61,119 nucleotides of DNA from an uncultured Hyphomicrobiales bacterium (GTDB lineage Bacteria; Bacteroidota; Ignavibacteria; Kapaibacteriales; UBA2268), in contig CAZOBD010000007.1 in assembly GCA_964577665.1 (NCBI GenBank), positions 1-61,119 on the forward strand, given 5' to 3'. Below, piece after piece: positions 18,886 to 32,897 of this stretch. Numbering within the stretch: the stretch's first letter is position 1; each line of letters opens with the position of its first letter. The position numbers were made by a program, and so were the translations under genes. Under the pieces are notes generated by a model, which did no database searches, was not told where the DNA came from, and saw only the letters and a list, made by a program, of their open reading frames with translations.

Positions 18886-18958
18886 GAAGAAAACCGAAAA
18901 GAAATATTGCAAAGCGGAAAATGGAAGAGCAGCGCGCCGGCGGGGGGACGCTGCTTTT
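18886..18958. repeat. family A cassette-junction repeat, copy A1
   Basis: agaagaaaaccgaaaagaaatattgcaaagcgg, then an A-rich linker, then the hairpin agcagcg/cgctgct (18928-18955) and TTTT. The 28-nt hairpin core is identical to A6. Confidence 0.85.
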
Positions 18959-18969
18959 AGGATACAAAA

Positions 18970-19194
18970 TTATTCCGTCAAAAATATTTCTTTAGAAATT
19001 TCGGACTGGCGGATAATCGAAAGCAATGTGCCTTTTTTTATTTCTTTATGTGCAGGCACAGGGATGGTTATCGTAGAATCAGGCAAACTCTTCTGCATAA
19101 TAATATGACTTCCTTTGGTTCTAACTTCAACAAAACCATGCCCTATAAGAATACTACAAATATCCTTACCCGAAAGTATTCGCAGCTTTCCCAA
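18970..19194 (-). CDS. hicA: HicA family toxin
   Basis: 74 aa with GFVEVRTKGSHIIMQK...IPVPAHKEIKKGTLLSIIRQ. It overlaps the upstream hicB. Confidence 0.85.
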   Translation of the reverse strand: MGKLRILSGKDICSILIGHGFVEVRTKGSHIIMQKSLPDSTITIPVPAHKEIKKGTLLSIIRQSEISKEIFLTE

Positions 19195-19408
19195 GATTGA
19201 TCTCCAACGGTGAAATATAGACTTCGTAATTAAATCTTTCCTTTATTTCATTTTCGGAAGCATATTCCAGAAAAAGCTCAATTGCCTCTTTAAGGTTAGC
19301 TTTAGCTTCTTCTATGCTGTATCCCTGACTTGCAATATCCAGCTCGGGACATAAAGCTGTAAACATATCATCGTCTTTTTCGATTAGCGCTGTGAACACT
19401 GGTTTCAT
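19166..19408 (-). CDS. hicB: HicB family antitoxin
   Basis: UPF0150/HicB-like (FTALCPELDIASQGYSIEEAKANLKEAIELFLE). Start taken at MKPVFTALIEK. Confidence 0.8.
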   Translation of the reverse strand: MKPVFTALIEKDDDMFTALCPELDIASQGYSIEEAKANLKEAIELFLEYASENEIKERFNYEVYISPLEINLGKAANTFG

Positions 19409-19462
19409 CAACACTCCAATTTTATTTTCAATTTTCAATAGAGATGTGATAATCCTTGATTT

Positions 19463-19517
19463 ATTGCATAGCGGAATAATGAAAAAAGCAGCGAGCCGGA
19501 GGGGGGGGGAGCGCTAT
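19463..19517. repeat. family A repeat, copy A2 (right hairpin arm degraded)
   Basis: attgcatagcggaataatgaaaaaagcagcgagccggagggggggggagcgctat. Confidence 0.75.
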
Positions 19518-20215
19518 TTATCAGGAAGATGTATATCATAAATTATTATCTCTACTTTGTATTCATTAAAATCATAAAAATATCGAACGAAACCATACTT
19601 TTCACTGAAATAATATTCTCCGCTGAATTTTCCAATTTCACTTATTCCTTGGGCATTTAACACCCAGCAAGTATCACGGATAACAGGATTGCTGTAATAA
19701 ACTTTATCAACAACTTCAATGGCGCCCCTAACTTCCTTGCCTTCGAATTCTTCCCAGCCTTTTCCGGGAGTCAGTTCCCAGTCCATTTTTTGACCTATAT
19801 GTACAGGAAATTTTATCCATGGGAAGGGTACTAATTCTGCTTTTCTCAAATAATCCTGTCTTGGCGGATGCAGCCATATCTCAGGTTTTAATAGTAATCT
19901 TGTTATGAAATTCCCCTGCCTGTCGATAACTCCGGTTCGGGGCTTAATGACGCTTTTACTGCCGTCTTCTCTATAAATTTTATATGTATAATTGATTTCC
20001 TTCTGGGTGTACATCCAAGTTTTGTTGAGGACTACAAAATGTAAAGTATCCACAGTTTTCTTATCGGATTTATGTATTGTGAAGCTGCATTTATATCCCG
20101 GTTTATAGATTAAAGAATTATTGCATGAATTGAGCAGAAAGATTACGCCGAATATTATTACACACATCACCAAAAGTGATAAAACAGATATTAATACAGT
20201 TTTTAAATATTTCAT
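19514..20215 (-). CDS. hypothetical membrane-anchored/lipoprotein
   Basis: 233 aa with an N-terminal TM and a possible lipobox (FLLNSC). I recognise no family. It forms a single-gene cassette. Confidence 0.6.
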   Translation of the reverse strand: MKYLKTVLISVLSLLVMCVIIFGVIFLLNSCNNSLIYKPGYKCSFTIHKSDKKTVDTLHFVVLNKTWMYTQKEINYTYKIYREDGSKSVIKPRTGVIDRQGNFITRLLLKPEIWLHPPRQDYLRKAELVPFPWIKFPVHIGQKMDWELTPGKGWEEFEGKEVRGAIEVVDKVYYSNPVIRDTCWVLNAQGISEIGKFSGEYYFSEKYGFVRYFYDFNEYKVEIIIYDIHLPDK

Positions 20216-20354
20216 AAATCAAGTAATTTGTTAAACTATAATTCAATACGCTGCACTCCTTCAGACAGCAACATTGTATCAGCATATAAATCTTCTCTGT
20301 GATAATAGAAAAATTGAAACTGATAATTAATGGAATTTTAAACTAATTAAAATG

Positions 20355-20540
20355 TTATTTAGTAACAGGTTCCCGCAAATTTTTATTTCTAAATCTAATA
20401 TTATACTTCCCCCTTATTTCTTCAGATTCCTGTTTTATATAATCAACATAGTCTTCAAAATTGCTTTGTTTAAAAGCTTTTTGAAGTGCCTTCTTCATCT
20501 CCCATACTTCGATAAGGGCAGGATCATCTTTCGTCTTCAT
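20355..20540 (-). CDS. small partner ORF of the PIN-like gene (putative antitoxin, downstream position)
   Basis: Start at MKTKDDPALIEVWEMKKAL, overlapping the 3' end of the PIN-like gene by 17 nt. Homologous to the hand-found ORF at 30667-30846 (MKTKIDKSLKEVWDMKEN). Confidence 0.6.
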   Translation of the reverse strand: MKTKDDPALIEVWEMKKALQKAFKQSNFEDYVDYIKQESEEIRGKYNIRFRNKNLREPVTK

Positions 20541-21009
20541 AAATAACCTCCATTGGATTGAGTAGTAAAAGCTGTTTTCTATATCCAAGCGACTGGTTAG
20601 TAATGTTTATTTTTTCTTGTTTGTTGATATTCGCCAAATGCCTGAAATTCCAAGATAATAGGATGTCAAAACCATAATATGTACAGAAGGCAATATGCAG
20701 AGCATCTTCAATTTTCTTTTCAGGAATTATTTTCCTTTCAACGTAAACTTTTGCTATTAATGAAATTTCTCGGTTTATTGCATCAAAATATTCTAAATGA
20801 TATTTTTTTATGGCAGAAAGTAATAGTTTTCTTTTTTCATCTACTTTTGTTTTTGAAATTTCTGCAATAACTATTTCTGAAATAAACACATCATAATAAT
20901 CAAGATATTTTTCAAAAAACTCTAAAGTTATTTCTTTCTTCTCAGGAGACTGCTCTGAAAAAAGAAAGTTGATTACAGATGTATCAAGATAAATTTTAAG
21001 TTTTTTCAT
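20524..21009 (-). CDS. PIN-like domain protein (putative toxin), subtype a
   Basis: 161 aa with MKKLKIYLDTSVINFLF...LLSWNFRHLANI. Paralog of 30830-31318. Confidence 0.75.
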   Translation of the reverse strand: MKKLKIYLDTSVINFLFSEQSPEKKEITLEFFEKYLDYYDVFISEIVIAEISKTKVDEKRKLLLSAIKKYHLEYFDAINREISLIAKVYVERKIIPEKKIEDALHIAFCTYYGFDILLSWNFRHLANINKQEKINITNQSLGYRKQLLLLNPMEVIYEDER

Positions 21010-21020
21010 AGTTTTTTCAA

Positions 21021-21098
21021 ATAAAGAAGCATTCCATTTTAAAATATTGCAAAGCGGAAAAATGCAAAAAGCAGCGAGCCGGAGAGGGGGAACTATGG
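21021..21098. repeat. family A repeat, copy A3
   Basis: ataaagaagcattccattttaaaatattgcaaagcggaaaaatgcaaaaagcagcgagccggagagggggaactatgg. The right hairpin arm is degraded. Confidence 0.8.
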
Positions 21099-21139
21099 TT
21101 TTTCTTAATCTGAAGAATTTTTTTTAGGTCAAGATTTTA

Positions 21140-21382
21140 TTACAAACTGTTATAGATTTCAAGAAATTCATTTCTTGATATACCTGCCTGAGTACAAATT
21201 AATCTAAGTATTGCTCCGTTTATTGTTTTATGATTGGGTAATGTCAAAGGTGTTTTGAAACCTTCCCCATCAACTCTTGCCATTGATATATGCTCTTTTT
21301 CTCTGACAATCTCAAAGCCTGATATCTTAAGAGCTTTAATTACCTTCCTTTTCGGAGCATCAGCAGGAAATTTGCTGCTCAT
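21140..21382 (-). CDS. hicA: HicA family toxin
   Basis: 80 aa, YcfA/HicA-like (VIKALKISGFEIVREKEHISMAR...LPNHKTINGAILRLICTQAGI). 4-nt overlap with the upstream hicB. Confidence 0.75.
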   Translation of the reverse strand: MSSKFPADAPKRKVIKALKISGFEIVREKEHISMARVDGEGFKTPLTLPNHKTINGAILRLICTQAGISRNEFLEIYNSL

Positions 21383-21597
21383 GCAATTGCCTCTTCTTCG
21401 ATAAAAGCTTCAATTATTTCTGCTTCATCATCTAATACGTTATCTCCAAAAGTTTCAATATGAAACTTCAATGCAGATTTAGCATCGTCCAATGCTTCCT
21501 TGTATGTACTGCCTTGTCCGGCAACAACTCCCTGTACTCCCAGCGGATATGCAATATAACTGCCGATGTGTTTTTCTACTACAAATTTTATACTCAT
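21379..21597 (-). CDS. hicB: HicB family antitoxin
   Basis: 72 aa, UPF0150-like (YIAYPLGVQGVVAGQGSTYKEALDDAKSALKFHIE). Confidence 0.75.
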   Translation of the reverse strand: MSIKFVVEKHIGSYIAYPLGVQGVVAGQGSTYKEALDDAKSALKFHIETFGDNVLDDEAEIIEAFIEEEAIA

Positions 21598-21620
21598 ATC
21601 TCCCTTTAACTATTTTTCAA

Positions 21621-21700
21621 ATAAAGAAGCATTCCATTTCAAATTATTGCAGAGCAGAAAAATGGAAAAGCCGCGTGGTGGAGGGGGGGTAGGCGGCTTT
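21621..21700. repeat. family A repeat, copy A4 (compensatory stem variant)
   Basis: ataaagaagcattccatttcaaattattgcagagcagaaaaatgg plus the hairpin aagccgc/gcggctt. The stem sequence differs from other copies but base pairing is preserved. Confidence 0.85.
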
Positions 21701-21708
21701 TGTAAATC

Positions 21709-21933
21709 CTACATTGAGGTCAAAAATTTATCAACAGTTAGCCCTGATAAACGGATCAATGCTCTGAGAGTGCCGATTGAAAGTTCCTTATGCTGTGGAA
21801 TAGAGAGATTTGCGTTCACATCATCTTTAGACATAACAACATGGCTGCCTACCTGCCCGACTTTATACCAGCCGAATCTTTGAAATGCTTTCACAGCTTC
21901 TTTCCCTGAAATATTTGCAAGTCTGCTCATCAC
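21709..21933 (-). CDS. hicA: HicA family toxin
   Basis: 74 aa with AVKAFQRFGWYKVGQVGSHVVMSK...IPQHKELSIGTLRALIRLSGL. Confidence 0.85.
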   Translation of the reverse strand: MMSRLANISGKEAVKAFQRFGWYKVGQVGSHVVMSKDDVNANLSIPQHKELSIGTLRALIRLSGLTVDKFLTSM

Positions 21934-22142
21934 ACGGTTACCAAAAGAGGTTCCTTAGTAGATTTCTCGATTTTTTTATAAGACTTTTGGTCTTCAGCCC
22001 AAAGCCATGCATAAATTGCCTCTTTTATGTTTCTCATTGCCTCTTCTTCAGTTATGCCTTGCGAAACACAACCAGGAAGCGCCGGACATTCAACAACGAA
22101 CCACCCGTCTTCTGCTTTTTCCAGTGTTACATGAAAGTGCAT
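21930..22142 (-). CDS. hicB: HicB family antitoxin
   Basis: 70 aa with GWFVVECPALPGCVSQGITEEEAMRNIKEAI. Confidence 0.85.
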   Translation of the reverse strand: MHFHVTLEKAEDGWFVVECPALPGCVSQGITEEEAMRNIKEAIYAWLWAEDQKSYKKIEKSTKEPLLVTV

Positions 22143-22217
22143 ATAATCTCCGTCAAAATGTTGAATTTTTATAAGATACGTTTTGTAAAGATTTTTATTA
22201 TAAGTATGAATAAAGGT

Positions 22218-22256
22218 AAAAAGCAGCGCGTAGGAGGGGAGAGGACGCTGCGTTTA
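22218..22256. repeat. family A hairpin-only copy A5
   Basis: aaaaagcagcgcgtaggaggggagaggacgctgcgttt. It lies in a divergent intergenic region, so it terminates neither neighbouring gene. Confidence 0.8.
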
Positions 22257-22365
22257 GTGAAATAATAAATACTATCTTTAATCTACTGAACGAATATTTT
22301 GTTTTGATTTATTGAAAATTTTCTTATTTTTATCTTTATTTATAATAATTAAGCAGAAAATTATA

Positions 22366-22587
22366 ATGACGCTTGAAGCAAGAAAATATCACCTAATTAA
22401 TTGGATAACCAATCTGAATGATATTGATACTATTGAATGTCTGGAGGCATTACGAAATTGCCCTTCTGAAACATGGGAAGATCTTCCGCTATCAGTTCGC
22501 AATGGAATTGTTAAATCATTAGAACAGGCTGATAGAGGAGAATTAACAGGCAGCAAAGAAGTATTTGAAAAGTACCGGAAAAGTTAA
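22366..22587 (+). CDS. putative antitoxin of the plus-strand ParE/RelE module
   Basis: Start at MTLEARKYHLINWI, 73 aa, ending 2 nt before the toxin start. This is the only cassette on the plus strand. Confidence 0.6.
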   Translation: MTLEARKYHLINWITNLNDIDTIECLEALRNCPSETWEDLPLSVRNGIVKSLEQADRGELTGSKEVFEKYRKS

Positions 22588-22589
22588 TA

Positions 22590-22895
22590 ATGAATTTACA
22601 AATCCTCTGGACTCCAATAGCTGAGACTACTTTTCAAGAAACCGTTAAATATTTAACATCTGAATGGAGCGAAATCACAGCTTATCAATTCATAGCGAGA
22701 ACTCATGCCATTTTGAGTAATTTATCAACATTTCCGTTAATGTACAAAAGTATTAATGACAAACTCAAGATTAGAAAGGGTTTAATTAACAAGCACATCA
22801 GCTTTTTCTATCGTGTAAAAGCATCTTCTATAGAAATTCTCTACTTTTGGGACAACAGAAGAAATCCCGAAGATTCAGAATATAATGTTCAATGA
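22590..22895 (+). CDS. RelE/ParE family toxin
   Basis: 101 aa, ParE-like (ISFFYRVKASSIEILYFWDNRRNPED). Confidence 0.8.
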   Translation: MNLQILWTPIAETTFQETVKYLTSEWSEITAYQFIARTHAILSNLSTFPLMYKSINDKLKIRKGLINKHISFFYRVKASSIEILYFWDNRRNPEDSEYNVQ

Positions 22896-22930
22896 AAAAA
22901 GCAGCGCGCCGGCGGGGGGACGCTGCTAAA
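22896..22930. repeat. family A hairpin-only copy A6
   Basis: aaaaaagcagcgcgccggcggggggacgctgctaaa. The hairpin (22900-22927) is identical to the A1 core. Confidence 0.85.
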
Positions 22931-23004
22931 TCGCTTTTCTTAATTTAAAAAAGATGACCAAAAAAAAATATTGAGATGCTGGGGTAGGAATGATAAAGAT
23001 AATT

Positions 23005-23277
23005 TTAATAAGCATCTTTCCGTTTACCTATCCATACTATCGAAACAATTTTTATTTCAGAGGTGATGGAATAGACAATTCTATAATCTCCAAGTCTGTA
23101 CCTGTAAAGACCTGATAATCTGCCTTTTAATTTTCTTATGTTTTTACCGAAAAACGGCTGTAGAGATATTTGTTCGAATATTTTGTTTAACTTCGCGGCT
23201 AAATTTTTATCGGATTCGCGATAGAATGTTTCAGCAGATTTTGATAAATTGATATCAAACATTTCTTTTGATATCAT
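23005..23277 (-). CDS. RelE/ParE family toxin
   Basis: 90 aa with LSGLYRYRLGDYRIVYSITSEIKIVSIVWIGKRKDAY. Confidence 0.85.
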   Translation of the reverse strand: MISKEMFDINLSKSAETFYRESDKNLAAKLNKIFEQISLQPFFGKNIRKLKGRLSGLYRYRLGDYRIVYSITSEIKIVSIVWIGKRKDAY

Positions 23278-23476
23278 TGAAATTCACAAAATTACCGGAA
23301 TTGATTTCGTCTAATCCCTTCTTTATTTCAAGGAGTATTTCGGGGGAATTAAGCTCCATAGTACTTTCCCATTCATCTTTACTGTTGAGATAAGACAAAT
23401 AATTATATGCTTCGGCAATTTTTTCTTCAGGTAAACTCTTTACAAGTTCTACAGTTTGATCGTAAATGACATTCAT
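23255..23476 (-). CDS. putative antitoxin (partner of RelE/ParE)
   Basis: 73 aa, acidic. It overlaps the toxin start by 23 nt. Confidence 0.65.
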   Translation of the reverse strand: MNVIYDQTVELVKSLPEEKIAEAYNYLSYLNSKDEWESTMELNSPEILLEIKKGLDEINSGNFVNFNDIKRNV

Positions 23477-23506
23477 TATCTGCTCCTGTTTTTGAATTTT
23501 TAATTA

Positions 23507-23585
23507 AAGATGAAAACCGAAAAAAAATATTGCAAAGCGAAAAAATGAAAAAAGCAGCGAGGCGGTGGGGGTTACGCTGCTTTTA
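23507..23585. repeat. family A repeat, copy A7
   Basis: aaagatgaaaaccgaaaaaaaatattgcaaagcgaaaaaatgaaaaa plus the hairpin agcagcg/cgctgct (23553-23581) and TTTT. Confidence 0.85.
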
Positions 23586-23609
23586 GTAAAAATTATCTAA
23601 AAATTTAAT

Positions 23610-24038
23610 TCACATAATACTTAAACCTTCAAATGAGGCAAGCTCAGACAGGATAATATCCGAAGAGAAAAAAACTTCAATCTTGTCTTTAACTTGCAAG
23701 CTTGATGCAAGCTGGATAGAATCCAATGTTCTCAAACCCCTCTTCCAATGTTTTTCTATAAGGTTTGTCGAAGCATTTCTTATATTTTTGTCAATCAAAA
23801 TGAAGGAAAACTTGTCAACATCATTGTGAAAATGTTGCAGCAGCTTTTTTGAAGATTTTTCGTCAATTTCGTTCATTCTGCACTTTTTCCAGACGACAGA
23901 GCTAAACTCAATGTAACTTAATTCAGATAAAAAGATTTCTTCAATGAAATGATTATTCAGGAAATCTATTAATTCGGGTGTACCCTGTTCGTAGTGATAT
24001 AATTTGAATAGAGAAGATGTATCAAAAAAAACTTTCAT
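23610..24038 (-). CDS. vapC: PIN domain toxin (VapC-like)
   Basis: 142 aa with MKVFFDTSSLFKLY...LRTLDSIQLASSL. ATGA overlap with the upstream antitoxin. Confidence 0.8.
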   Translation of the reverse strand: MKVFFDTSSLFKLYHYEQGTPELIDFLNNHFIEEIFLSELSYIEFSSVVWKKCRMNEIDEKSSKKLLQHFHNDVDKFSFILIDKNIRNASTNLIEKHWKRGLRTLDSIQLASSLQVKDKIEVFFSSDIILSELASFEGLSIM

Positions 24039-24268
24039 TGTTCTTTTCTTCTTTCAATTATTACCTCCTCTGCAAATGAACCTTTGTAATGTTTAAGCAG
24101 TTCTTGTGCTTTTAAAAAAGAAAAATCACTTACGCTTAATCCTTGCTTTTTTTCGTCTTCAAGAATCATTGTTACTTCTACCGGTTTTTTTTGCTCATAC
24201 AACCTGTCGAGTTTTATCTTTCCTTTGTAATATGTACCTTTTATTTCCTGCATTATATCTCCTTTCAC
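24035..24268 (-). CDS. putative antitoxin (DUF104/AF2212-like N-terminus)
   Basis: 77 aa with IKGTYYKGKIKLDRLYEQKKPVEVTMIL. AGGAG Shine-Dalgarno upstream. Confidence 0.65.
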   Translation of the reverse strand: MKGDIMQEIKGTYYKGKIKLDRLYEQKKPVEVTMILEDEKKQGLSVSDFSFLKAQELLKHYKGSFAEEVIIERRKEQ

Positions 24269-24279
24269 AGTTTTTTATA

Positions 24280-24360
24280 ATAAAGAAGCATTCCATTTCA
24301 AAATATTGCAGAGCGGAAAAAATGAATAAAGCAGCGTTGCCGAAGGGGGAGACGCTGCTT
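24280..24360. repeat. family A repeat, copy A8
   Basis: ataaagaagcattccatttcaaaatattgcagagcggaaaaaatgaataa plus the hairpin agcagcgt/acgctgct (24330-24359). Confidence 0.85.
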
Positions 24361-24381
24361 GTTTTACCAGTGTTATTATTG

Positions 24382-24741
24382 TCAAATAATATCATTAATT
24401 TCAAGTTCCTCAATCCAAATAAAATCGTCAGTATTATGAGTTACCAAGGTGTCTTTTCTTACAATAGCTGTTGCGGCAATAATCGAATCTCCGAGAGACA
24501 TCTTTTTTATCTGCTTAAGCTCTTTTGCTTTTAAAATGATTTCCGAAGATATTGGAATTACTTCAATAATGTCGAAAAAACTTTCAAATAAGGTTTTATC
24601 TCTATCCGAAAGCAAATGATAGCCTAATACTTCTAAATAGCTGATAGCAGAAACAGATACAGAATTTTCTGCAATAAAATCTCTGATATTTTCAAATTTT
24701 GGTTGTATAGAATAAATTATTATGTTGCTGTCTATTACCAT
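24382..24741 (-). CDS. vapC: PIN domain toxin (VapC-like)
   Basis: 119 aa with MVIDSNIIIY...SAISYLEVLGY...LGDSIIAATAIVRKDTLVTHNTDDF. Confidence 0.85.
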   Translation of the reverse strand: MVIDSNIIIYSIQPKFENIRDFIAENSVSVSAISYLEVLGYHLLSDRDKTLFESFFDIIEVIPISSEIILKAKELKQIKKMSLGDSIIAATAIVRKDTLVTHNTDDFIWIEELEINDII

Positions 24742-24989
24742 TATTGCCTGCCCGATAAAGGCTTATCAATACGTATGTCTTTCTGCCACTGCACAGGGTC
24801 AATATTTTTAAAAGCTGTAGAATTTTCAGCAAGCTCCGCTAATATTTCTTTAATTTTTAAGGAATTGGTAGAATTTGTATTTACTATTTTTCGTACTCGG
24901 ACTTCAACATCTGAATTATCGAAATCTTCGGGCAATTCCATTTGAATTTTTCTTCGTGTTACTCTTATTCTCTGAGTCATCTCAAGCAT
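24741..24989 (-). CDS. putative antitoxin (partner of VapC)
   Basis: 82 aa. Its stop overlaps the toxin ATG by 1 nt (TAATG). Confidence 0.6.
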   Translation of the reverse strand: MLEMTQRIRVTRRKIQMELPEDFDNSDVEVRVRKIVNTNSTNSLKIKEILAELAENSTAFKNIDPVQWQKDIRIDKPLSGRQ

Positions 24990-25010
24990 AAAAAATCCTT
25001 TTTTATGTTT

Positions 25011-25088
25011 AAAGATGAAAATAAAAAAGAATTATTGCAAAGCAGTAAAACGAAAAAAGCAGCGTTGCCGGAGGGAAGTGCTTCTTTT
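25011..25088. repeat. family A repeat, copy A9 (right arm degraded)
   Basis: aaagatgaaaataaaaaagaattattgcaaagcagtaaaacgaaaaaagcagcgttgccggagggaagtgcttctttt. Confidence 0.8.
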
Positions 25089-25111
25089 AGGATTACTTAT
25101 GTCAGGAATGT

Positions 25112-25513
25112 TTATAGATTAGACAGAAAATCTTCTATTGTTATTATTTTAGTACTATTTATGTGTTTTAAAACTAATAGATCATTATCTCCTGTTATCA
25201 ATAAATCCGCCTTACCGCAAAGGGCTAATTCCAAAAATATATTGTCCTTTGGATCTCTGCAAAGTTCTATCTTTTTATTTATGAATACGATATTTGTAAT
25301 GTCTGAATATCTTGTTAAAAATTCTTTTCGTAAACCTATATCAATGTATTTATTGAATTTATCTCTATGAAGTACTCCTTCGAGTTCCTTCAATGTATCT
25401 TTTGAAGATAACAAAGTAAAATGCTTTCGAGCAATATCGAATACTATTCTTGGCTTGCTGAATGGAAAACATAAACTGCTTACAATGATGTTTGTGTCAA
25501 GAACAATATTCAT
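25112..25513 (-). CDS. PIN family toxin component
   Basis: 133 aa with MNIVLDTNIIVSSL...CRDPKDNIFLELALCGKADLLITGDNDLL. Confidence 0.85.
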   Translation of the reverse strand: MNIVLDTNIIVSSLCFPFSKPRIVFDIARKHFTLLSSKDTLKELEGVLHRDKFNKYIDIGLRKEFLTRYSDITNIVFINKKIELCRDPKDNIFLELALCGKADLLITGDNDLLVLKHINSTKIITIEDFLSNL

Positions 25514-25517
25514 ATAC

Positions 25518-25739: not shown

Positions 25740-25780
25740 ATATTTTTTGTTTTTTAATTCTATTAAACGACATATACACA

Positions 25781-25860: not shown

Positions 25861-25877
25861 TTTTAAAACACTACTTA

Positions 25878-26387: not shown

Positions 26388-26445
26388 AATAAACTCCATA
26401 AATAAATAAAAATATTTTATCAAATATCATTCAATACCGTTTTGT

Positions 26446-26820
26446 TTATCCTAATCTTGATGGTATCTCTGGTTTTAATTTCATTTCTAAAAATATCTCA
26501 AGTGCAGCTACCCAATGTAAGTCTTCACTATGCTTAATATTAAACAATAAAAGGATTGTTTCTGAATCATTTTCTAATTGTTTCATCCAACCAGCAGTGT
26601 TATCCTCTAAATGCTGTAAAGCTCTTTTTCTGGAATTGCTTAATGATCTGCCGATTCTAATAACTTGTTCGTTTTTTAAGAAAACATAAACACCTGGCAT
26701 GGCGGCTCCATTATTTTGATGAAGTGTTTCCTCATTAAGAGAGTACTCAATTATGTTGAATTTATCTTTAACAAATCCAAACTCGTCTTCAAATAAATTA
26801 ATAATATTTGATTTTTCCAT
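26446..26820 (-). CDS. hypothetical protein with GIY-YIG-like N-terminal motif
   Basis: 124 aa. PGVYVFLKNEQVIRIGRS resembles the GIY..YIG motif of GIY-YIG nucleases. The assignment is tentative. Confidence 0.45.
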   Translation of the reverse strand: MEKSNIINLFEDEFGFVKDKFNIIEYSLNEETLHQNNGAAMPGVYVFLKNEQVIRIGRSLSNSRKRALQHLEDNTAGWMKQLENDSETILLLFNIKHSEDLHWVAALEIFLEMKLKPEIPSRLG

Positions 26821-26836
26821 TTTTAACTCCTGATAT

Positions 26837-27064
26837 TTATTTTAGAATATAGCCACAACTAGGACATAATAAATTCACTCCACCTTTTTTAGGCTTCCAA
26901 AATAAATAAAGCAAACCTGCTGAACAACATATAGCAACAAAATGAAACCATAAAGGATATTTTCCTTTATCTGTTTCAACAAAATCCATTGCCCCTTTAA
27001 AACCACATTTTGGACATTTTCCTTCTTTTTTTGAGAAGTTTCTCATCGCAGCTTCTTTTGGCAT
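26837..27064 (-). CDS. small zinc-ribbon membrane protein
   Basis: 75 aa with CPKCG...(TM: LWFHFVAICCSAGLLYLFW)...CPSCG. Confidence 0.55.
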   Translation of the reverse strand: MPKEAAMRNFSKKEGKCPKCGFKGAMDFVETDKGKYPLWFHFVAICCSAGLLYLFWKPKKGGVNLLCPSCGYILK

Positions 27065-27112
27065 TTTTTACCTTTATTTTTGATGTAACAAAAGTTTATT
27101 TAAATATTTTTA

Positions 27113-27631
27113 TCAGGCATCAGCCCATATTTTTATTCCATGTCTTTTTCTTTCTTCCATTGAGTATTTCCTTATTTGTTCTGATAATTCATTACCGTTT
27201 TTTAAACCGTTAATTCTTAAAACTGGTGTCGCTCTGTCTGATGTATGTAGCATTAATTCACTAAAACCTAATATTCTCATTCCTATTGGCTTGTTAACAG
27301 AAATATCATCAATTCTATATAATTCTATAGTTTTCTGTGATTTTGAGATAATACCTGATTCAATTAGAATCCTTTGATTAGTAATCTTATAATTCGTTGT
27401 TTTGCTATTAATAGCATAGTAAATATAAGCTATTCCAATAGTTAGAAATATGAAAATTATTTGTTTGATATCATACACAATTGATGGGTTACCTTCAAAC
27501 AAATAACTTTCAACCAAAGATTTCTTTTTTGCATGAAATTCTTCAATATCTTCTCCACAAAATCTACATTTGATTGCAGAAGATTTAATAGTTTCTCCGC
27601 AGATTGGACATTGTTTGTTACTGTCTTCCAT
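27113..27631 (-). CDS. zinc-ribbon + bacterial PH (bPH_2/DUF304-like) membrane protein
   Basis: Start at MEDSNKQCPICG (ATG 27631, GGAG upstream). Contains CPICG..CRFCG, a TM segment, and YKITNQRILIESGIISKSQKTIELYRIDDISV, which is typical of YdbS/YdbT-type PH domains. Confidence 0.65.
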   Translation of the reverse strand: MEDSNKQCPICGETIKSSAIKCRFCGEDIEEFHAKKKSLVESYLFEGNPSIVYDIKQIIFIFLTIGIAYIYYAINSKTTNYKITNQRILIESGIISKSQKTIELYRIDDISVNKPIGMRILGFSELMLHTSDRATPVLRINGLKNGNELSEQIRKYSMEERKRHGIKIWADA

Positions 27632-27739
27632 TTCGACTCCAAAAATTATTATAAAATAATCATAAAAAAAAGGGCATTTTCGCATTTATGCCCTAAATCG
27701 AGGTATCGCCAAACACCCTTGAACCAGACATAAAGGAAA

Positions 27740-27834
27740 ACGCCCCAAGCGGGGCGTGCCTTTATCTGCATCCGGTTCACAAAAATTGGCGATTTTCGAT
27801 TTAGAACGCAGTAAGACAACGCTTACAAATATTT
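27740..27834. repeat. family B cassette-junction repeat, copy B1 (long form)
   Basis: acgcccc-aagc-ggggcgt hairpin, then gcctttatctgcatccggttcac, then the core aaaattggcgattttcgatttagaacgcagtaagacaacgcttacaaatattt. Confidence 0.85.
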
Positions 27835-27838
27835 CAAA

Positions 27839-28015
27839 TTAAACAGACATTATCTGTTTTTCTTTCCTTTCAATCAGATATTTATATAAATCATTCTCTT
27901 TTATCATTTGATCGTGCAGTTTAATCAAACCTTTGAATGTTTCACCTGCTTCAATCCAGAGCTTTTCCTGAATTTCTAATTTAAGATTAACGCAGTCGAA
28001 TTTTTTAGTCTTCAT
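27839..28015 (-). CDS. small partner ORF of the PIN-like gene (hand-found, 58 aa)
   Basis: MKTKKFDCVNLKLEIQEKLWIEAGETFKGLIKLHDQMIKENDLYKYLIERKEKQIMSV. It overlaps the PIN-like 3' end by 11 nt. Related to 29316-29459 (shared FDCV motif). Confidence 0.55.
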   Translation of the reverse strand: MKTKKFDCVNLKLEIQEKLWIEAGETFKGLIKLHDQMIKENDLYKYLIERKEKQIMSV

Positions 28016-28469
28016 CTAAAATAACCTCCCTTGGTGATCTTATTTCAATTAATGAATAACCTTTTGTTAAATTGATACCATTGTACAGTCTTATTCTTCT
28101 TAAATTTACTATGTGTTTGAAATTCCAACTCACCAATACATCTGCCTTGTATATCGTTGCACATGCAATATGTAAGGCATCGTCAGAAAACTTCTGATTG
28201 ATTGCGTTGTTATTAATATAGCTTTCTGCTAATAAAATAACATCATCATTTTTGTTGATAATTTCCAAATTAACTACCGGGATTTCTTTGATCTTATTTT
28301 TTATTTTATTAGGGGCTTTTGATAATTCACCAATTAAGATATCAGATACAACCGCAATTCTATTTCCTACGACAAAATCCTCAAACAACTTGTTATACCA
28401 CTTTGAAAATTCTTCATCAAAGCACCCGCCTATTACAGATGTGTCAATATATATTCTTTGCTTTTGCAT
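28005..28469 (-). CDS. PIN-like domain protein (putative toxin), subtype b
   Basis: 154 aa with MQKQRIYIDTSVIGGCFDEEF...VLVSWNFKHIVNLRR. Paralog of 29452-29913. Confidence 0.75.
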   Translation of the reverse strand: MQKQRIYIDTSVIGGCFDEEFSKWYNKLFEDFVVGNRIAVVSDILIGELSKAPNKIKNKIKEIPVVNLEIINKNDDVILLAESYINNNAINQKFSDDALHIACATIYKADVLVSWNFKHIVNLRRIRLYNGINLTKGYSLIEIRSPREVILDED

Positions 28470-28611
28470 ATTATAAATTAATGAATAATTATTGATTAAA
28501 CAAGATAAATATTCACTATGTCAATATTTGTTTTATTATCTAATACAATTGAGTTACAAAGCGTGGAAAATGCCCGATTTCTTGTGCGTACCGTTCTACC
28601 GTTCTACTGTC

Positions 28612-28668
28612 ACAAAAATTGGCGATTTTTCACTAAAGAACGCAGTAAGACAACGCTTACAAGTATTT
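28612..28668. repeat. family B repeat, copy B2
   Basis: acaaaaattggcgatttttcactaaagaacgcagtaagacaacgcttacaagtattt. Confidence 0.85.
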
Positions 28669-28720
28669 TTTTCTATTTAATTGCTGTTGTTATAACCTCT
28701 CGGTATTTATGATAAAAAAA

Positions 28721-28978
28721 TTAGTTCTTTCTATATGCATCTTTTCTATGAATTACATCATATACTTCAATAATAGATTCTTTATCGTTTATTTCGTAAA
28801 TTATCCGGTAAACTCCAACTCGAATTCTATAAACTTCAGAGTCAGCCAGTTTCAAACTTCCATTTGGTCTGGGGACTTCTGAAAGCTTTTTTAACTTACT
28901 ATATATTTTCAAATAATAATTCTTTGGAATTTTATCCAAATTCTTGCAAGCATTATTAGATAGCTTAACTTTATACAT
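28721..28978 (-). CDS. RelE/ParE family toxin
   Basis: 85 aa with VYRIRVGVYRIIYEINDKESIIEVYDVIHRKDAY. Confidence 0.85.
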   Translation of the reverse strand: MYKVKLSNNACKNLDKIPKNYYLKIYSKLKKLSEVPRPNGSLKLADSEVYRIRVGVYRIIYEINDKESIIEVYDVIHRKDAYRKN

Positions 28979-29165
28979 TTTCTAATTTCATTCTTTGATT
29001 ATGATATTCTTCCAAATCAATGAAATGGTCTGTCTCGGCTTTAGCTTGTTTATAAGCTTCTCTGTCCTCAAGCATCTCAATTAACTCTTGGAAATAATCA
29101 TCTTTTCTGTATTCTTCCCAAGTTTCTCTTGAGATTATTACTTCTTTGTCAGTGAATGTAATCAT
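28971..29165 (-). CDS. putative antitoxin (partner of RelE/ParE)
   Basis: 64 aa. It overlaps the toxin start by 8 nt. The N-terminal 25 aa are identical to 32459-32662. Confidence 0.7.
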   Translation of the reverse strand: MITFTDKEVIISRETWEEYRKDDYFQELIEMLEDREAYKQAKAETDHFIDLEEYHNQRMKLENV

Positions 29166-29233
29166 ATTTCACCTTCGATTGTTAGTAACAGAACTTAATA
29201 TATATAAAACTTTTAAAACTGCAAAAAATTTTT

Positions 29234-29288
29234 AATTTTGGCGATTTTTCACTAAAGAACGCAGTAAGACAACGCTTACAAATATTTT
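29234..29288. repeat. family B repeat, copy B3 (core only)
   Basis: aattttggcgatttttcactaaagaacgcagtaagacaacgcttacaaatatttt. Confidence 0.85.
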
Positions 29289-29315
29289 AAATTAGTTTAT
29301 TTTTCTATTCTTTTC

Positions 29316-29459
29316 CTTAAATGATTTCACATATTCGCTTTCTTCAATTTTCTTTCTTAATAATGCAAATAATTTATTAACATCGCGATCAGCTTCATCA
29401 AAGAATTTTTCTCTGACTTTTCTTTGGTAATCCACGCAATCAAAACTTTTTTCATTCAT
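29316..29459 (-). CDS. small partner ORF of the PIN-like gene (hand-found, 47 aa)
   Basis: MNEKSFDCVDYQRKVREKFFDEADRDVNKLFALLRKKIEEKRICEII. It overlaps the PIN-like 3' end by 8 nt. Confidence 0.5.
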
Positions 29460-29913
29460 TATTAATCACCTCCTTCGGAGATCTGATTTCAACTTCTTTA
29501 TAACCATAAAATAAGTTCACTGAGTTATACTTTTTAATTCTTGTTAAATTAACAATATGTTTGAAATTCCAACTGACAAGAACATCCACTTTATTTATTG
29601 TTGAGTAAGCAATGTGCAAGGCATCTTCAGCACAGCTTGGTGAAATTGCCTTATGCTCTATATATTTTTGCGCTAAAAATTCAGCTTCAGAACTTACAGG
29701 CAGAATTTCAGTAAATGCTTCAAGAATATCAGACAATTTTTCTTTTACAAATAAAGGAGCATCTTCAACTTCTCTCAAAGTAACTTTTGAGACTGCAGCA
29801 ATTTTCTTTCCTGCCTTAAACTCCTCGAAAAGCAGATTAGACCACTCAGCAAACTCTTCATCGAAGCAGCCGCCTATGACGGAAGTATCAATATATACTC
29901 TAAGTTTCTTCAT
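29452..29913 (-). CDS. PIN-like domain protein (putative toxin), subtype b
   Basis: 153 aa with MKKLRVYIDTSVIGGCFDEEF...VLVSWNFKHIVNLTR. Confidence 0.75.
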   Translation of the reverse strand: MKKLRVYIDTSVIGGCFDEEFAEWSNLLFEEFKAGKKIAAVSKVTLREVEDAPLFVKEKLSDILEAFTEILPVSSEAEFLAQKYIEHKAISPSCAEDALHIAYSTINKVDVLVSWNFKHIVNLTRIKKYNSVNLFYGYKEVEIRSPKEVINNE

Positions 29914-30014
29914 ACAACAAATTATAAAAAAAACAAATAATATCCAAATCTTATAATTAGAGCTTTATTTGTTGCTAATCTTGTTTAACCAAACTTTAAG
30001 AAAAACTGAAAACT

Positions 30015-30099
30015 GGGCGTGCCTTTATCTGCATCCGGTTCAGAAAAATTGGCGATTTTTCACTAAAGAACGCAGTAAGACAACGCTTACAAGTATTTT
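30015..30099. repeat. family B repeat, copy B4 (long form, no second hairpin arm)
   Basis: gggcgtgcctttatctgcatccggttcagaaaaattggcgatttttcactaaagaacgcagtaagacaacgcttacaagtatttt. Confidence 0.85.
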
Positions 30100-30115
30100 A
30101 AAAAATCAATTTTCT

Positions 30116-30340
30116 TTAAATAGAAACCTCCATTTCATAAGATTTAACTTTCGGTTTCGGAATCCTCGTCGAACTCATTTTCATTCCTTCAAGGTGGAAT
30201 TCAAGAGCATCTTTAATTAAAGCTCTTACTTCTTCCTCTGTTTCAGCAACAGCCACACAGCCCGGTAAATCCGGGATATATGCACCATAAGAATGATATC
30301 CTTTTTCAATAATAATAGTGTATTTCATTATTGTATTCAT
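30116..30340 (-). CDS. hicB: HicB family antitoxin
   Basis: 74 aa with YGAYIPDLPGCVAVAETEEEVRALIKDALEFHLEG. Confidence 0.85.
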   Translation of the reverse strand: MNTIMKYTIIIEKGYHSYGAYIPDLPGCVAVAETEEEVRALIKDALEFHLEGMKMSSTRIPKPKVKSYEMEVSI

Positions 30341-30343
30341 TTA

Positions 30344-30529
30344 TTATCTTAGTTTAGCTTGTTTCAAAATACTGATAATTGTACCTTTTGGCATTTCGAC
30401 TGATAGTTTGCCAGCAATAGTAACTGTTCCTTTTTTAAGCGGATGATGAAATTGTCTATGACTTCCTCTGATTCTATCCATATACCATCCATCTGTTTCA
30501 ATAATTTCAATAATTTCTTTTACTTTCAT
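30344..30529 (-). CDS. hicA: HicA family toxin
   Basis: 61 aa with GWYMDRIRGSHRQFHHP...GKLSVEMPKGTIISILKQA. The order here is hicA then hicB, unlike the other three Hic modules. Confidence 0.85.
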   Translation of the reverse strand: MKVKEIIEIIETDGWYMDRIRGSHRQFHHPLKKGTVTIAGKLSVEMPKGTIISILKQAKLR

Positions 30530-30605
30530 TCAGCAATTTAATAAACATTATAAAATAAAAAAAATTTAATTTTTTAATAATTTTCTTTCTTACCGTTCAA
30601 CAGCT

Positions 30606-30660
30606 AAAAATTGGCGATTTTCAATGATGAACGCAGTAAGACAACGCTTACGTGTATTTT
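30606..30660. repeat. family B repeat, copy B5 (core only)
   Basis: aaaaattggcgattttcaatgatgaacgcagtaagacaacgcttacgtgtatttt. Confidence 0.85.
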
Positions 30661-30666
30661 ATTCGC

Positions 30667-30846
30667 TTAGTTTACTACATAATTTTTCTTTTCAGTAAAT
30701 TGATTTTTTAAGTACTCATCTATTTTCTTTTGTCTGATTTTTAAATATTCAGCATAGCTGCTAACATCACTATTTAAAAATCTATTTCTTGCATTTTCTT
30801 TCATATCCCAAACTTCTTTGAGGGATTTATCAATCTTCGTTTTCAT
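30667..30846 (-). CDS. small partner ORF of the PIN-like gene (hand-found, 59 aa)
   Basis: MKTKIDKSLKEVWDMKENARNRFLNSDVSSYAEYLKIRQKKIDEYLKNQFTEKKNYVVN. It overlaps the PIN-like 3' end by 17 nt. Homolog of 20355-20540. Confidence 0.6.
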   Translation of the reverse strand: MKTKIDKSLKEVWDMKENARNRFLNSDVSSYAEYLKIRQKKIDEYLKNQFTEKKNYVVN

Positions 30847-31318
30847 AGACTACCTCATAAGGATTAAGTAGTAATAATTGTTTTGAATAACCAATCTCAA
30901 GATTTACTGCATTAATTTTTCTTTGTTTTTTTACATTAGCTAAGTGTTTGAAATTCCAAGATAAGAGAATATCAAATTCGTAATAAGTAGCAAAAGCAAT
31001 ATGAACGGCATCTTCAAATTTTCTTTTGGGAATAATACCTCTATTTATATAGACATCAGCAATTTCAAGAATATTTTCATTAATTATATTATAATTATTT
31101 AACTTATATTGATGAATTGCCTGAAAAAGAATATTTTTCTTTTCTTCAAGCTTTGTATTATCTATTTCATCATAAACAATACTTGAAATATACACATCAA
31201 ATTTATCCAAATAATTTTCAAAAAAATCGACAGTAACTTCCTTCTTTTCCGGTGCATCGTCCGCAAAAAGAAAATTAATAACTGAAGTATCAAGATATAT
31301 TTTAAGTTTTTTATTCAT
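30830..31318 (-). CDS. PIN-like domain protein (putative toxin), subtype a
   Basis: 162 aa with MNKKLKIYLDTSVINFLF...LLSWNFKHLANV. Confidence 0.75.
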   Translation of the reverse strand: MNKKLKIYLDTSVINFLFADDAPEKKEVTVDFFENYLDKFDVYISSIVYDEIDNTKLEEKKNILFQAIHQYKLNNYNIINENILEIADVYINRGIIPKRKFEDAVHIAFATYYEFDILLSWNFKHLANVKKQRKINAVNLEIGYSKQLLLLNPYEVVYENED

Positions 31319-31395
31319 TGAAGTAATATAATAAAAATATTTCTAATATTCTATCAATATTCTAAAAATATGTTTCAAAAGAATAGTGATTGAAA

Positions 31396-31491
31396 ACGCG
31401 CCAAACGGGGCGTGCCTTTATCTGCATCCGGTTCACAAAAATTGGCGATTTTCGATTTAGAACGCAGTAAGACTACGCTTACAAATATTTT
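31396..31491. repeat. family B repeat, copy B6 (long form)
   Basis: acgcgcc-aaac-ggggcgt imperfect hairpin, then gcctttatctgcatccggttcac, then the core aaaattggcgattttcgatttagaacgcagtaagactacgcttacaaatatttt. Confidence 0.85.
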
Positions 31492-31505
31492 ATTTCATTA
31501 AAAAT

Positions 31506-31787
31506 CTATTTATAAATATCACCTCTATAATCAATTTCATAAATCATTATTTCTTCATTTTTTCTATCTGCTTGAAAAACTATTCTTAATTTTCCAATTT
31601 TTATTCTGCTAAAGCCTTTCCATTTGCCTTCTAAATGTTTCACATTCAAATTATGATAATTAGAAAGATTAATTCCACTATAAAACTCATGCAATTCACT
31701 GACTTTAGACCTGATTTTCTTTTTGTCTTTCTCAGGGCATTTTTCAAGAAATTTAATTGCATTTTTATGAAATTTTATTATCATCAA
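31506..31787 (-). CDS. RelE/ParE family toxin
   Basis: 93 aa with KHLEGKWKGFSRIKIGKLRIVFQADRKNEEIMIYEIDYRGDIY. Confidence 0.85.
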   Translation of the reverse strand: MMIIKFHKNAIKFLEKCPEKDKKKIRSKVSELHEFYSGINLSNYHNLNVKHLEGKWKGFSRIKIGKLRIVFQADRKNEEIMIYEIDYRGDIYK

Positions 31788-32004
31788 ATAGCCAATCCGT
31801 CATGTCTTCAAAGTCATCTTTCGAATATTTATCGGGACTGCCATAAAGATTTTCTATTTCTTCAATTTCAGCATCTGCTGCCTTTGGAAATATGGAATTA
31901 TAGAAATCAATTCTTTCTTCATTCATAACTTCAAGGATTACTTCTCTGAATATCTCTTTGAAGAACTCTCTTTGTTCTGTTGTACTCAGCATATCTTTTA
32001 TCAC
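31765..32004 (-). CDS. putative antitoxin (partner of RelE)
   Basis: 79 aa, acidic. It overlaps the toxin start by 23 nt. Confidence 0.65.
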   Translation of the reverse strand: MIKDMLSTTEQREFFKEIFREVILEVMNEERIDFYNSIFPKAADAEIEEIENLYGSPDKYSKDDFEDMTDWLFDDNKIS

Positions 32005-32098
32005 TAAATAATGTCAAACAAAAGCAATTCTAATATTTACTATTTCAAATATAGTTAATAAATTCTAATAAAACAATAAATGAAATAAACGAAACACT

Positions 32099-32177
32099 CC
32101 TTTATCTGCATCCGGTTCAGAAAAATTGGCGATTTTTCACTAAAGAACGCAAGTAAGACAACGCTTACAAATATTTT
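32099..32177. repeat. family B repeat, copy B7
   Basis: cctttatctgcatccggttcagaaaaattggcgatttttcactaaagaacgcaagtaagacaacgcttacaaatatttt, with a 1-nt insertion in the core. Confidence 0.85.
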
Positions 32178-32221
32178 ATTTCTATTTAATTACTGTTGTT
32201 TAAAAATCTCCATTAGTTTTT

Positions 32222-32465
32222 TTAATTCTTGATATATGCGTCTTTCCTGTCAGATATTTTTAAAATATTGACAATCTTATTAACATCATCCATTGTATAT
32301 AAAATTCTGTAATTACTCCATCGGATTCTATATCCTAATTCTGTTTTTAATTTTACACAACCTCTTGGCCTTGGAGTATCACTCAGCAAGTTAATAAGGC
32401 TTGCAATTTTGTCATATTGGTAATCATCAAGTTTCAACAAAAATTTCTTGCTTTAGAATCAATGA
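32222..32465 (-). pseudogene. RelE/ParE family toxin with disrupted 5' end
   Basis: Homologous to 28721-28978 from ...PRPRGCVKLKTELGYRIRWSNYRILYTMDD onward. The only in-frame start is a TTG at 32440, with an in-frame TAA 4 codons upstream. The N-terminal homology (IDSKARNF, compare LSNNACKN) sits in another frame. Confidence 0.5.
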
Positions 32466-32662
32466 GTATTCTGTAGTTTTCTTTCACGTCTTTGCCTGTC
32501 AAATTCCTTAAAGTCAATCATTTCTTTACTGTTTTCAATAGCTTTTTCAAGTTCTACAGAATCCTCCAAAATATCTAAAACCTCCCGGAAGTAATCATCC
32601 TTTCTGTATTCTTCCCAAGTTTCTCTCGAGATTATTACTTCTTTGTCAGTGAATGTAATCAT
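32459..32662 (-). CDS. putative antitoxin (partner of the degraded RelE/ParE)
   Basis: 67 aa. The first 25 aa (MITFTDKEVIISRETWEEYRKDDYF) are identical to 28971-29165, and the sequences then diverge. Confidence 0.7.
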   Translation of the reverse strand: MITFTDKEVIISRETWEEYRKDDYFREVLDILEDSVELEKAIENSKEMIDFKEFDRQRRERKLQNTH

Positions 32663-32730
32663 ATTTCACCTTCGATTGTTAGCAACAAAACTTAATATAC
32701 ATAAAACTTTATAATTTGCAAAAAAATTTT

Positions 32731-32784
32731 AAAATTGGCGATTTTTCACTAAAAAACGCAGTAAGACAAGCCTTGCAAGTTTTT
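32731..32784. repeat. family B repeat, copy B8 (core only, most diverged, last copy)
   Basis: aaaattggcgatttttcactaaaaaacgcagtaagacaagccttgcaagttttt. Confidence 0.8.
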
Positions 32785-32887: not shown

Positions 32888-32897
32888 ATTGACATTT

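Follow-up and report, generated by a model that had tools for sequence, protein, structure and literature searches.

The DNA analysed here is a stretch of 61,119 nucleotides (nt), referred to below as the window, from contig CAZOBD010000007.1 of an uncultured Kapabacteria/Ignavibacteria-like bacterium (assembly GCA_964577665.1). Its subject is an AT-rich island on the minus strand (18850..32897), made up of 18 gene units, most of them toxin-antitoxin (TA) modules, and 18 junction repeats. It forms an integron-like array of TA cassettes, hitherto uncharacterised, with repeats of two private families, A and B. GC content is about 0.30 in the island (18.85-32.9 kb) as against 0.42, and lies at 0.27-0.34 between 20 and 33 kb versus 0.39-0.45 in the flanks. 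Pfam assigns the bordering genes to an amidase-like protein (AmiA-like/DUF1460, 17543-18562) on one side and an AI-2E transporter (32898-33941) on the other. The GC profile and the Pfam assignments bear out a preliminary description, made from the letters of the sequence, of an AT-richer island of about 14 kb between two ordinary genes.

The repeats were located by repeat finding, pattern searches and nhmmer profiles, with a chance expectation of 0-0.2 matches, and these methods recovered the ten A copies and eight B copies that had been counted before. All 18 lie on the same strand, with one at almost every junction. Sub-array B (27755..32789, minus strand) consists of seven TA cassettes within eight B repeats, namely B8 (32729-32789), B7 (32092-32181), B6 (31405-31495), B5 (30595-30664), B4 (30012-30101), B3 (29233-29290), B2 (28601-28672) and B1 (27755-27839). 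Sub-array A (18879..25863, minus strand) comprises nine units within ten A repeats: A10 (25784-25863), A9 (25007-25091), A8 (24277-24361), A7 (23500-23586), A6 (22875-22933), A5 (22195-22254), A4 (21616-21701), A3 (21017-21104), A2 (19434-19519) and A1 (18879-18961). Both sub-arrays thus follow an n+1 rule, with seven cassettes to eight sites and nine units to ten sites. Spacing from repeat to repeat is 553-834 nt, one larger unit excepted. B8 directly adjoins the conserved chromosomal AI-2E gene, and only a 15-codon remnant is found 3' of A1. The two sub-arrays are separated by a 4-gene unit (25878..27685, minus strand) lying between B1 and A10.

By Pfam, the cargo comprises 16 type II TA modules, one lipoprotein-like gene and the 4-gene unit. 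The modules are four HicA/HicB pairs, five ParE/RelE-type pairs, three VapBC-like pairs (here a small open reading frame, ORF, followed by a PIN protein) and four pairs of a PIN-like protein (153-162 amino acids, aa) with a mini-ORF (55-61 aa), the four PIN-like proteins being paralogues. These counts agree with those made from the letters, as does the finding that the repeats enclose mostly unrelated genes (HicAB, ParE, VapBC and PIN-like). Within sub-array B, cassette 1 (32222..32662, minus strand) encodes a putative antitoxin of 67 aa and a ParE-type toxin and is paralogous to cassette 6 (28721-29165), with 84% nucleotide identity over 247 nt. Cassette 2 (31506..32004, minus strand) holds a 79-aa ORF and a ParE-type toxin, and cassette 4 (30116..30529, minus strand) HicA followed by HicB. 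A PIN-like protein of 162 aa and a mini-ORF of 59 aa form cassette 3 (30667..31318, minus strand), whose paralogues are cassettes 5 (29292-29913) and 7 (27839-28469) and, in sub-array A, cassette 16 (20355-21009, minus strand).

Sub-array A begins with cassettes 9-12 (23005..25793, minus strand), three of them VapBC-like (25112-25793, 24382-24989 and 23610-24268) and one RelE/ParE (23005-23476). They are followed by the sole plus-strand unit of the island, an inverted cassette with a 91-aa ORF and ParE (22312..22895), which is flanked by the hairpins of A6 and A5, both in the standard orientation; every other unit is on the minus strand, as had been noted. Three HicBA pairs (21709-22142, 21140-21597 and 18970-19405) and an orphan lipoprotein-like gene (19514-20215), all on the minus strand, make up the rest. 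The first product of the 4-gene unit is a membrane protein of 190 aa with Zn-ribbon and bPH_2 domains; the others are a Zn-ribbon-like protein of 75 aa and two proteins of 124 aa and 181 aa without family assignment. The unit received no TA assignment, and PADLOC run on the non-TA cargo gave no match.

Read in the direction of the genes, the core of family B is AAAATAYTTGTAAGCGTTGTCTTACTGCGTTCTTTAGTGAAAAATCGCCAATTTTT, 55 nt that are 88-100% conserved although the neighbouring genes are unrelated. In seven copies it starts within a few to about 50 nt of the preceding stop codon; in B8, whose left part is the most divergent, the distance from the AI-2E stop codon is about 100 nt. To its right follow three types of extension: GTGAACCGGATGCAGATAAAGG with a GC hairpin and TTTT (B1, B4, B6 and B7); GAACGGTA(A/G)AA (B2 and B5); and an AT-rich stretch (B3 and B8), preceding the two paralogous ParE cassettes. 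B1 is part of an extended element (27690..27815, minus strand), an imperfect palindrome of 126 nt with a folding energy of -31.9 kcal/mol and a z score of -6.5 against shuffled sequences. The left arm of this element is the 3' half of the B core with the extension GTGAACCGGATGCAGATAAAGGCACGCCCCG, its centre a GC hairpin and then TTTT, which looks like a terminator, and its right arm, TTGGCGATACCTCGATTTAG, is present in B1 and missing from the other seven copies. B5 reaches a z score of -2.3 and the remaining six copies -0.1 to -1.3. B5 and B2 also contain a 56-nt palindrome (GTCTTAC-TG-CGTTC...GAACG-GTAAGAA) with a bulge in the left arm and ends that resemble the R boxes of integron attC sites in 6/7 and 5/7 positions, the central pair being flipped.

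Family A is organised differently. In gene direction it opens with a stem-loop, AAAAGCAGCG and CGCTGCTTTTTT enclosing a C-rich loop, followed by the conserved T-rich segment CATTTTTCCGCTTTGCAATATTT, one of two subtypes of about 25 nt, and the tail TTTATTnAAAAA, which stops 10-45 nt short of the following ATG. The stem has 6-10 bp and the loop 14-18 nt, and the hairpin folds better than shuffled sequences (z of -3.2 and -3.3). A single compensatory change in the stem, GCCGC/GCGGC in A4, was judged by eye, as MAFFT misaligned the 5' arms of the hairpins. An additional degenerate A copy at about 22940-22990 adjoins the inverted ParE cassette. The copies are mosaics, in that loop types (A1 identical to A6, A2 similar to A3, A8 similar to A9) are freely combined with downstream subtype 1 (A10, A8, A4 and A3) or subtype 2 (A9, A7 and A1), which points to exchange within the conserved middle segment. 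Although the hairpin loops (window 18926-25849) vary in length, all remain rich in C on the coding strand (CCCCCnCCGGC, containing CCUCC). A plain terminator does not need such a loop, which might base-pair with ribosome-binding sites of the GGAG type or serve to bind a protein.

The two families differ in what they leave to the genes behind them. Cassettes of the B type have 70-190 nt of upstream DNA of their own with sigma-70-like boxes, and units of the A type are essentially promoterless, with the gap from repeat to ATG being 10-45 nt, a geometry that integron cassettes also have. A consensus scan found no sigma-70-type promoter in family A. A Bacteroidetes-type promoter was considered there and rejected, its TTTG and TAnnTTTG boxes being 24 nt apart and not 19-21 nt. 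The A stems come with A- and T-runs, and their loops are longer than the 3-8 nt usual in intrinsic terminators; a terminator consensus scan called the GC hairpins of B1, B6 and one A copy. A motif common to A (reverse strand), to the start of B and to a repeat at another locus described below (L180), CAAAATAT.GCAAAG, was dropped as not significant by nhmmer.

Both repeat families are lineage-private. Pattern searches and nhmmer detected no copy of either in the 47 kb of the window that lie outside the island. The exact pattern of the B core gave no match in one genome for each of 185,579 species, in JGI metagenome contigs or in IMG/VR. The A pattern had three matches in viral contigs, all in one homologous phage coding sequence, and these were set aside as chance. 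No match to the A and B profiles was obtained by nhmmer in 72 loci around AI-2E orthologues from metagenome-assembled genomes (MAGs) of Kapaibacteria, Ignavibacteriota and Chlorobiota, nor in 80 metagenome loci with PIN-like homologues and the loci of the closest homologues; among the fetched loci, only contigs of this organism itself match. Plasmids searched by blastn gave no match, and Rfam returned nothing at gathering score, the sole match being a spurious snoRNA at E 0.3.

Co-oriented cassettes of about 0.5-1 kb with one site each and unrelated cargo, as present in the island, are also typical of integron cassette arrays and of CALINs, which are attC clusters without an integrase (IntegronFinder papers PMC4889954 and PMC9024848). 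The repeats were compared with attC sites. As a stand-in for IntegronFinder, a covariance model, R1, was built from five attC sites delimited from ten fetched class 1 integrons. The model is home-made from sites of mobile integrons, and the dfrA27 site scored only 12.8 bits; the full-length trained sites were recovered, and untrained ones reached 66.9 bits (aadA16), 53.6 (an environmental cassette in locus L177), 49.3 (aac(6')-29b) and 30.2 (VIM-2). With default filters R1 found no match in the window at E <= 10, and with filters off only six between 18400 and 33000, at 6.7-9.9 bits (E 1-8) and none at a repeat. A regular expression for the box pair R'' RYYYAAC and R' GTTRRRY matched at no junction; being insensitive (it finds about 1/6 of the real attC sites in control integrons), it was replaced by the covariance model. 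The palindrome of B5 and B2 has neither an unpaired central spacer nor an AAC/GTT triplet and is not scored by R1, and neither A nor B folds as a single strand clearly above chance at each site, as would be expected of attC.

Nor was an integrase found. Pfam identified no recombinase among the ORFs of at least 150 aa in the 61-kb window, most of which received other assignments, and IntI1, with a query sequence 100% identical to database copies, had no tblastn match in the window even at E <= 10. The absence of canonical boxes and of an intI-like gene from the window had both been reported, and both reports hold. Background attC scores and the lack of an associated recombinase had also been named beforehand, together with an identical, static array in related strains, among the observations that would refute that description; the first two were made in the window. 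Membership of the integrons or CALINs is not supported by these tests, and the overall architecture resembles one. What stands of the earlier, integron-like reading is this architecture, namely a repeat at each junction, co-orientation, unrelated cargo, a homogeneous family in each sub-array and AT-rich, foreign-looking DNA; the assignment to integrons finds no support in the attC model, the IntI search and the folds of most B copies.

The island can be set beside several known systems. With sedentary chromosomal integron arrays and CALINs it shares co-oriented cassettes of 0.5-1 kb, a homogeneous repeat of 55-125 nt at each junction, frequent TA cargo, ORFs that start soon after the preceding repeat, independence of a local integrase (in CALINs) and assemblies that break at the repeats. 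It differs from them in that its repeats have no R''/R' boxes and no fold of two stems with a spacer, score at background with the attC model and form two families in two separate blocks, the cargo is almost all TA, and no IntI is known for the organism. Xer-dependent modules (the pdif modules of Acinetobacter plasmids, and IMEX, integrative elements at dif) are often TA pairs with short conserved sites, and their recombinase is encoded elsewhere. The units of the island are likewise discrete, often TA and bounded by sites, with no recombinase in the module or nearby. The sites of pdif modules are, however, 28 bp long with the structure XerC-6-XerD and alternate in orientation, whereas the repeats of the island are 55-100 nt long, all direct, and on reading show no dif-like 11-6-11 structure; a dif-like interpretation of B was discarded for want of XerC and XerD arms. 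Repetitive extragenic palindromes (REPs), the bacterial interspersed mosaic elements (BIMEs) and miniature inverted-repeat transposable elements (MITEs) are also lineage-private, partly palindromic and intergenic, lie just past stop codons and have truncated variants. Unlike them, the repeats studied here all point the same way, occur once per junction and are limited to one island; they are not accompanied by target-site duplications, and they include long conserved segments that are not palindromic. Clustered unrelated TA modules are a feature of TA and defence islands, and an identical non-coding segment before unrelated genes is the feature of putative mobile promoters. Yet no promoter is recognisable in the shared segment of the island, and we know of no described TA island with a regular repeat at every junction.

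Homologues of the PIN-like module indicate to what the repeats belong. The closest homologues of cassette 3 (80-81% aa identity) are solitary two-gene modules amid ordinary chromosomal or housekeeping genes, where nucleotide homology extends from the ATG to within the mini-ORF and neither an A nor a B repeat is present; the repeats therefore belong to the array and not to the TA module. The module is bracketed by other, locus-private direct repeats in about 9 of about 30 metagenome loci of at least 4 kb, which include L149 (7 copies), L180 (3 copies), L156, L124, L111 and L143. L149 (1-13888 of JGI metagenome contig Ga0209121_10004035) is a co-oriented TA and defence island in which GGGGTCAGGTCTCAACATTTGACA follows each unit, in seven copies. 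Its units are a YhcG nuclease, DUF3800, MNT-HEPN, a PIN-like protein with mini-ORF and DUF7309/DUF6930; it sits between a DUF2851 fragment and tmk/holB, and the contig has no recombinase. L180 (3019-5005 of JAYTSA010000237.1, assembly GCA_043745925.1) has two tandem modules of PIN-like protein and mini-ORF, of different subtypes, each preceded by a 45-nt element, TTTTTTAAAACAAAATATAGGCAAAGAAAAGGGAAAAGAGA, that reaches the ATG, with a third copy after the second module. L156 has brackets of 139 nt with a C-rich-loop hairpin. In L132 (1518-3988 of JGI metagenome contig Ga0209324_10016990) an IntI1-like gene (51% identity over 321 aa), detected by the tblastn query that had no match in the window, is immediately preceded by a PIN-like module. 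R1 gave weak attC-like matches in L132 (20.5 bits at 3926-3988) and in L111. L132 looks like a genuine environmental integron carrying the PIN-like TA family, and this family is often cassette-like cargo, both in true integrons and in arrays with other repeats.

Comparison of the locus itself was possible in short Logan contigs from four runs (SRR7048219, SRR7048224, SRR7048225 and SRR7048228), the only other DNA of the organism to which searches with identical proteins led; they come from one study and represent one strain. They retain the order of the window at 99.9-100% identity, which, within a single strain, says nothing on whether the array is static. The nearest genomes, whose AI-2E proteins reach no more than 67% identity, do not share the gene order around the island. 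The whole island is bracketed by a 13-nt direct repeat, TGAAAGCGGTAAA, with one copy (18397-18409) within the 5' end of the amidase-like gene and the other (32808-32820) between the AI-2E stop codon and B8. A match of this length was reached in 10 of 2000 shuffles, the pair having been discovered post hoc, and it may be the footprint of an en-bloc integration of the attL/attR type.

The surroundings of the island hold further features. In the segment that leads from the last A repeat to the amidase-like gene (window 18450-18870), GTAAAAAATAAACAGATG occurs three times, together with hairpins of the types GTCCGACATCTGGCAGATGTTGGAC and GACACCTTGAAGGTGTAC. Comparable hairpins with the same kind of loop (...CTTGAAGG...) lie 3' of solitary TA modules in L164, L167 and L145, and with those at 18470-18830 they look like a clade-wide REP-like or terminator family. 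In a Kapaibacterium MAG (L042, 7578-7807) the AI-2E orthologue is closely followed by an exact 98-bp tandem repeat of 2.3 copies, whose GGGGAGG/CCTCC motifs resemble the hairpin at window 18590-18640. A scan for tRNA genes found none. Type IX secretion system (T9SS) sorting domains and BatA-D in the window place the host in the Fibrobacteres-Chlorobi-Bacteroidetes (FCB) group; the collections searched contain no close relative of it. A giant secreted or surface protein is encoded by a single ORF of 6597 aa (window 38203-57996), which combines numerous FG-GAP repeats with Ig-like domains and, at the C-terminus, a T9SS sorting domain.

As unrelated cargo lies between identical repeats, tandem duplication followed by divergence is ruled out as the origin of the array. 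The best explanation in our view, with a probability that we put a little short of even, is an orphan cassette array to which one-site modules were added in series at sites other than attC, by a recombinase that is unlinked or lost; the hairpins would now also serve as terminators or insulators. TA modules would have entered one by one, probably as circles, each with one site of 55-100 nt; recombination with a resident site would leave a site on both sides of the insert, so that n cassettes come with n+1 co-oriented sites. Two arrays with different site families would have grown on either side of the 4-gene unit, B by the AI-2E gene and A by the amidase gene, unless the whole block was imported ready-assembled. 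The recombinase might be unlinked and encoded by the host, as for Xer-dependent elements, or have been left in the donor genome or lost. The repeats would now probably insulate the modules transcriptionally through their terminator-like hairpins, the A stem-loop with its A- and T-runs and the GC hairpin with TTTT of the long B form. Serial one-site insertion explains the n+1 rule, the co-orientation, the homogeneity of each sub-array and the mosaic A copies. It also agrees with the standard orientation of the hairpins around the inverted cassette, the lack of A and B repeats at the solitary homologues of cassette 3, the short gaps of the promoterless A units, the confinement of the repeats to the island, and the occurrence of PIN-like modules elsewhere between other private repeats or, in L132, beside an intI gene. 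The anatomy of the array, the privacy of its repeats and the negative attC and IntI results are observations, from which we infer insertion by recombination at the repeats, an unlinked recombinase and a terminator role; as neither a recombination event nor a recombinase was seen, we do not claim a demonstrated new system.

Several observations weigh against such an origin. No recombinase is present among the ORFs examined, and no gain, loss or reshuffling of cassettes was seen in the one-strain contigs of the four runs. Reading of the A and B alignments, with no formal dif model run, revealed no dif-like 11-6-11 site, nor is a core-type site recognisable, B having only a 5-6-5 mini-palindrome. 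A2 and A3 lack the 5' arm of the stem, and the right arms of B are of three differing types. The conserved block of A reaches almost to the start codon, as a shared 5' leader would. Finally, neither family was found elsewhere in any of the collections searched, so that no independent instance ties the repeats to a recombinase.

The preliminary description had left the choice between a diverged or non-canonical cassette system and a TA island built around a shared terminator/promoter module; the former is somewhat favoured, and the promoter half of the latter is weak, since no promoter of either type is recognisable in A. A reading of the second kind, in which A is a terminator hairpin with a common 5' leader or operator and B a common 3' untranslated region ending in a terminator, is the main rival, if on balance an unlikely one. 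The copies would have spread by local homologous recombination or gene conversion and been kept for co-regulation or for insulation of the toxins, and no dedicated recombination system would be involved. The A hairpin with its A- and T-run flanks, its fold scores and the compensatory change in A4, the GC hairpin and TTTT that end the long form of B, the reach of the A block and of the analogous 45-nt repeat of L180 to the ribosome-binding site or ATG, the tendency of like repeats to be neighbours (A2/A3 and A8/A9) and the conservation of B in sequence rather than in structure all agree with it. However, neither a sigma-70 nor a Bacteroidetes-type promoter fits in A, unrelated TA families would need a common leader and have no operators of their own, and a plain terminator does not require the loop of A to stay C-rich. 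A1 has no downstream gene and B8 no upstream cassette. Gene conversion, moreover, needs prior homology, which leaves the first acquisition by ten unrelated operons unexplained.

That the repeats are selfish, small non-autonomous palindromic elements of the REP or MITE kind, which spread through the gaps between the genes of an AT-rich TA island, is improbable. Palindromes do occur in both families, nested and imperfect in B, with the foldback of B1 as the strongest; there are truncated or variant sub-families (the three right-arm types of B and the A copies without one stem arm); the families are lineage-private, as REPs are; and another REP-like hairpin family exists in the clade, the one next to the amidase-like gene and in L164, L167 and L145. 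Such elements would not be expected to show one orientation in 18 of 18 copies (about 2^-17 if random) and one copy at nearly every junction, nor to spare the other intergenic regions of the window, about 25 in number; we found no terminal inverted repeats accompanied by duplicated target sites, and A and B do not intermix. A true but strongly diverged integron array, a CALIN whose attC sites have drifted past recognition and whose intI lies elsewhere in the genome, is highly improbable. Complete integrons are known in Chlorobi and Ignavibacteriae (PMC9024848), the palindrome of B5 and B2 has R-box-like ends and a left-arm bulge, and the PIN-like module neighbours an integron in L132. Against this, R1 scored 6.7-9.9 bits and nowhere at the repeats, versus 30-67 bits for untrained attC sites; the unpaired central spacer and the AAC/GTT cleavage triplet are absent, the two-stem fold is missing in 6 of 8 B copies and all A copies, and tblastn detected no remnant of IntI in the window.

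Among systems that stack promoterless gene cassettes at a repeated site, only integrons are, to our knowledge, well understood. If the island is indeed one of a kind of non-attC arrays built by another recombinase, cassette capture would have more than one evolutionary origin, and searches based on attC and IntI would overlook a whole class of arrays in phyla that have been little studied. It is doubtful, but conceivable, that FCB-group bacteria (Kapabacteria, Ignavibacteria and relatives) more generally have a non-integron cassette-capture system, which stacks TA and defence modules at lineage-private sites of 45-100 nt with a recombinase that is not adjacent to the array; the window would then be its largest example, and L149, L180, L156, L124 and L143 would be smaller analogues. 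An array of this origin would also offer defined short sites, A and B, and a compact set of 16 modules in which to study the accumulation of TA systems and their transcriptional insulation. If the repeats are shared regulatory modules instead, the locus would still be a clear case of unrelated TA operons placed under common non-coding elements.

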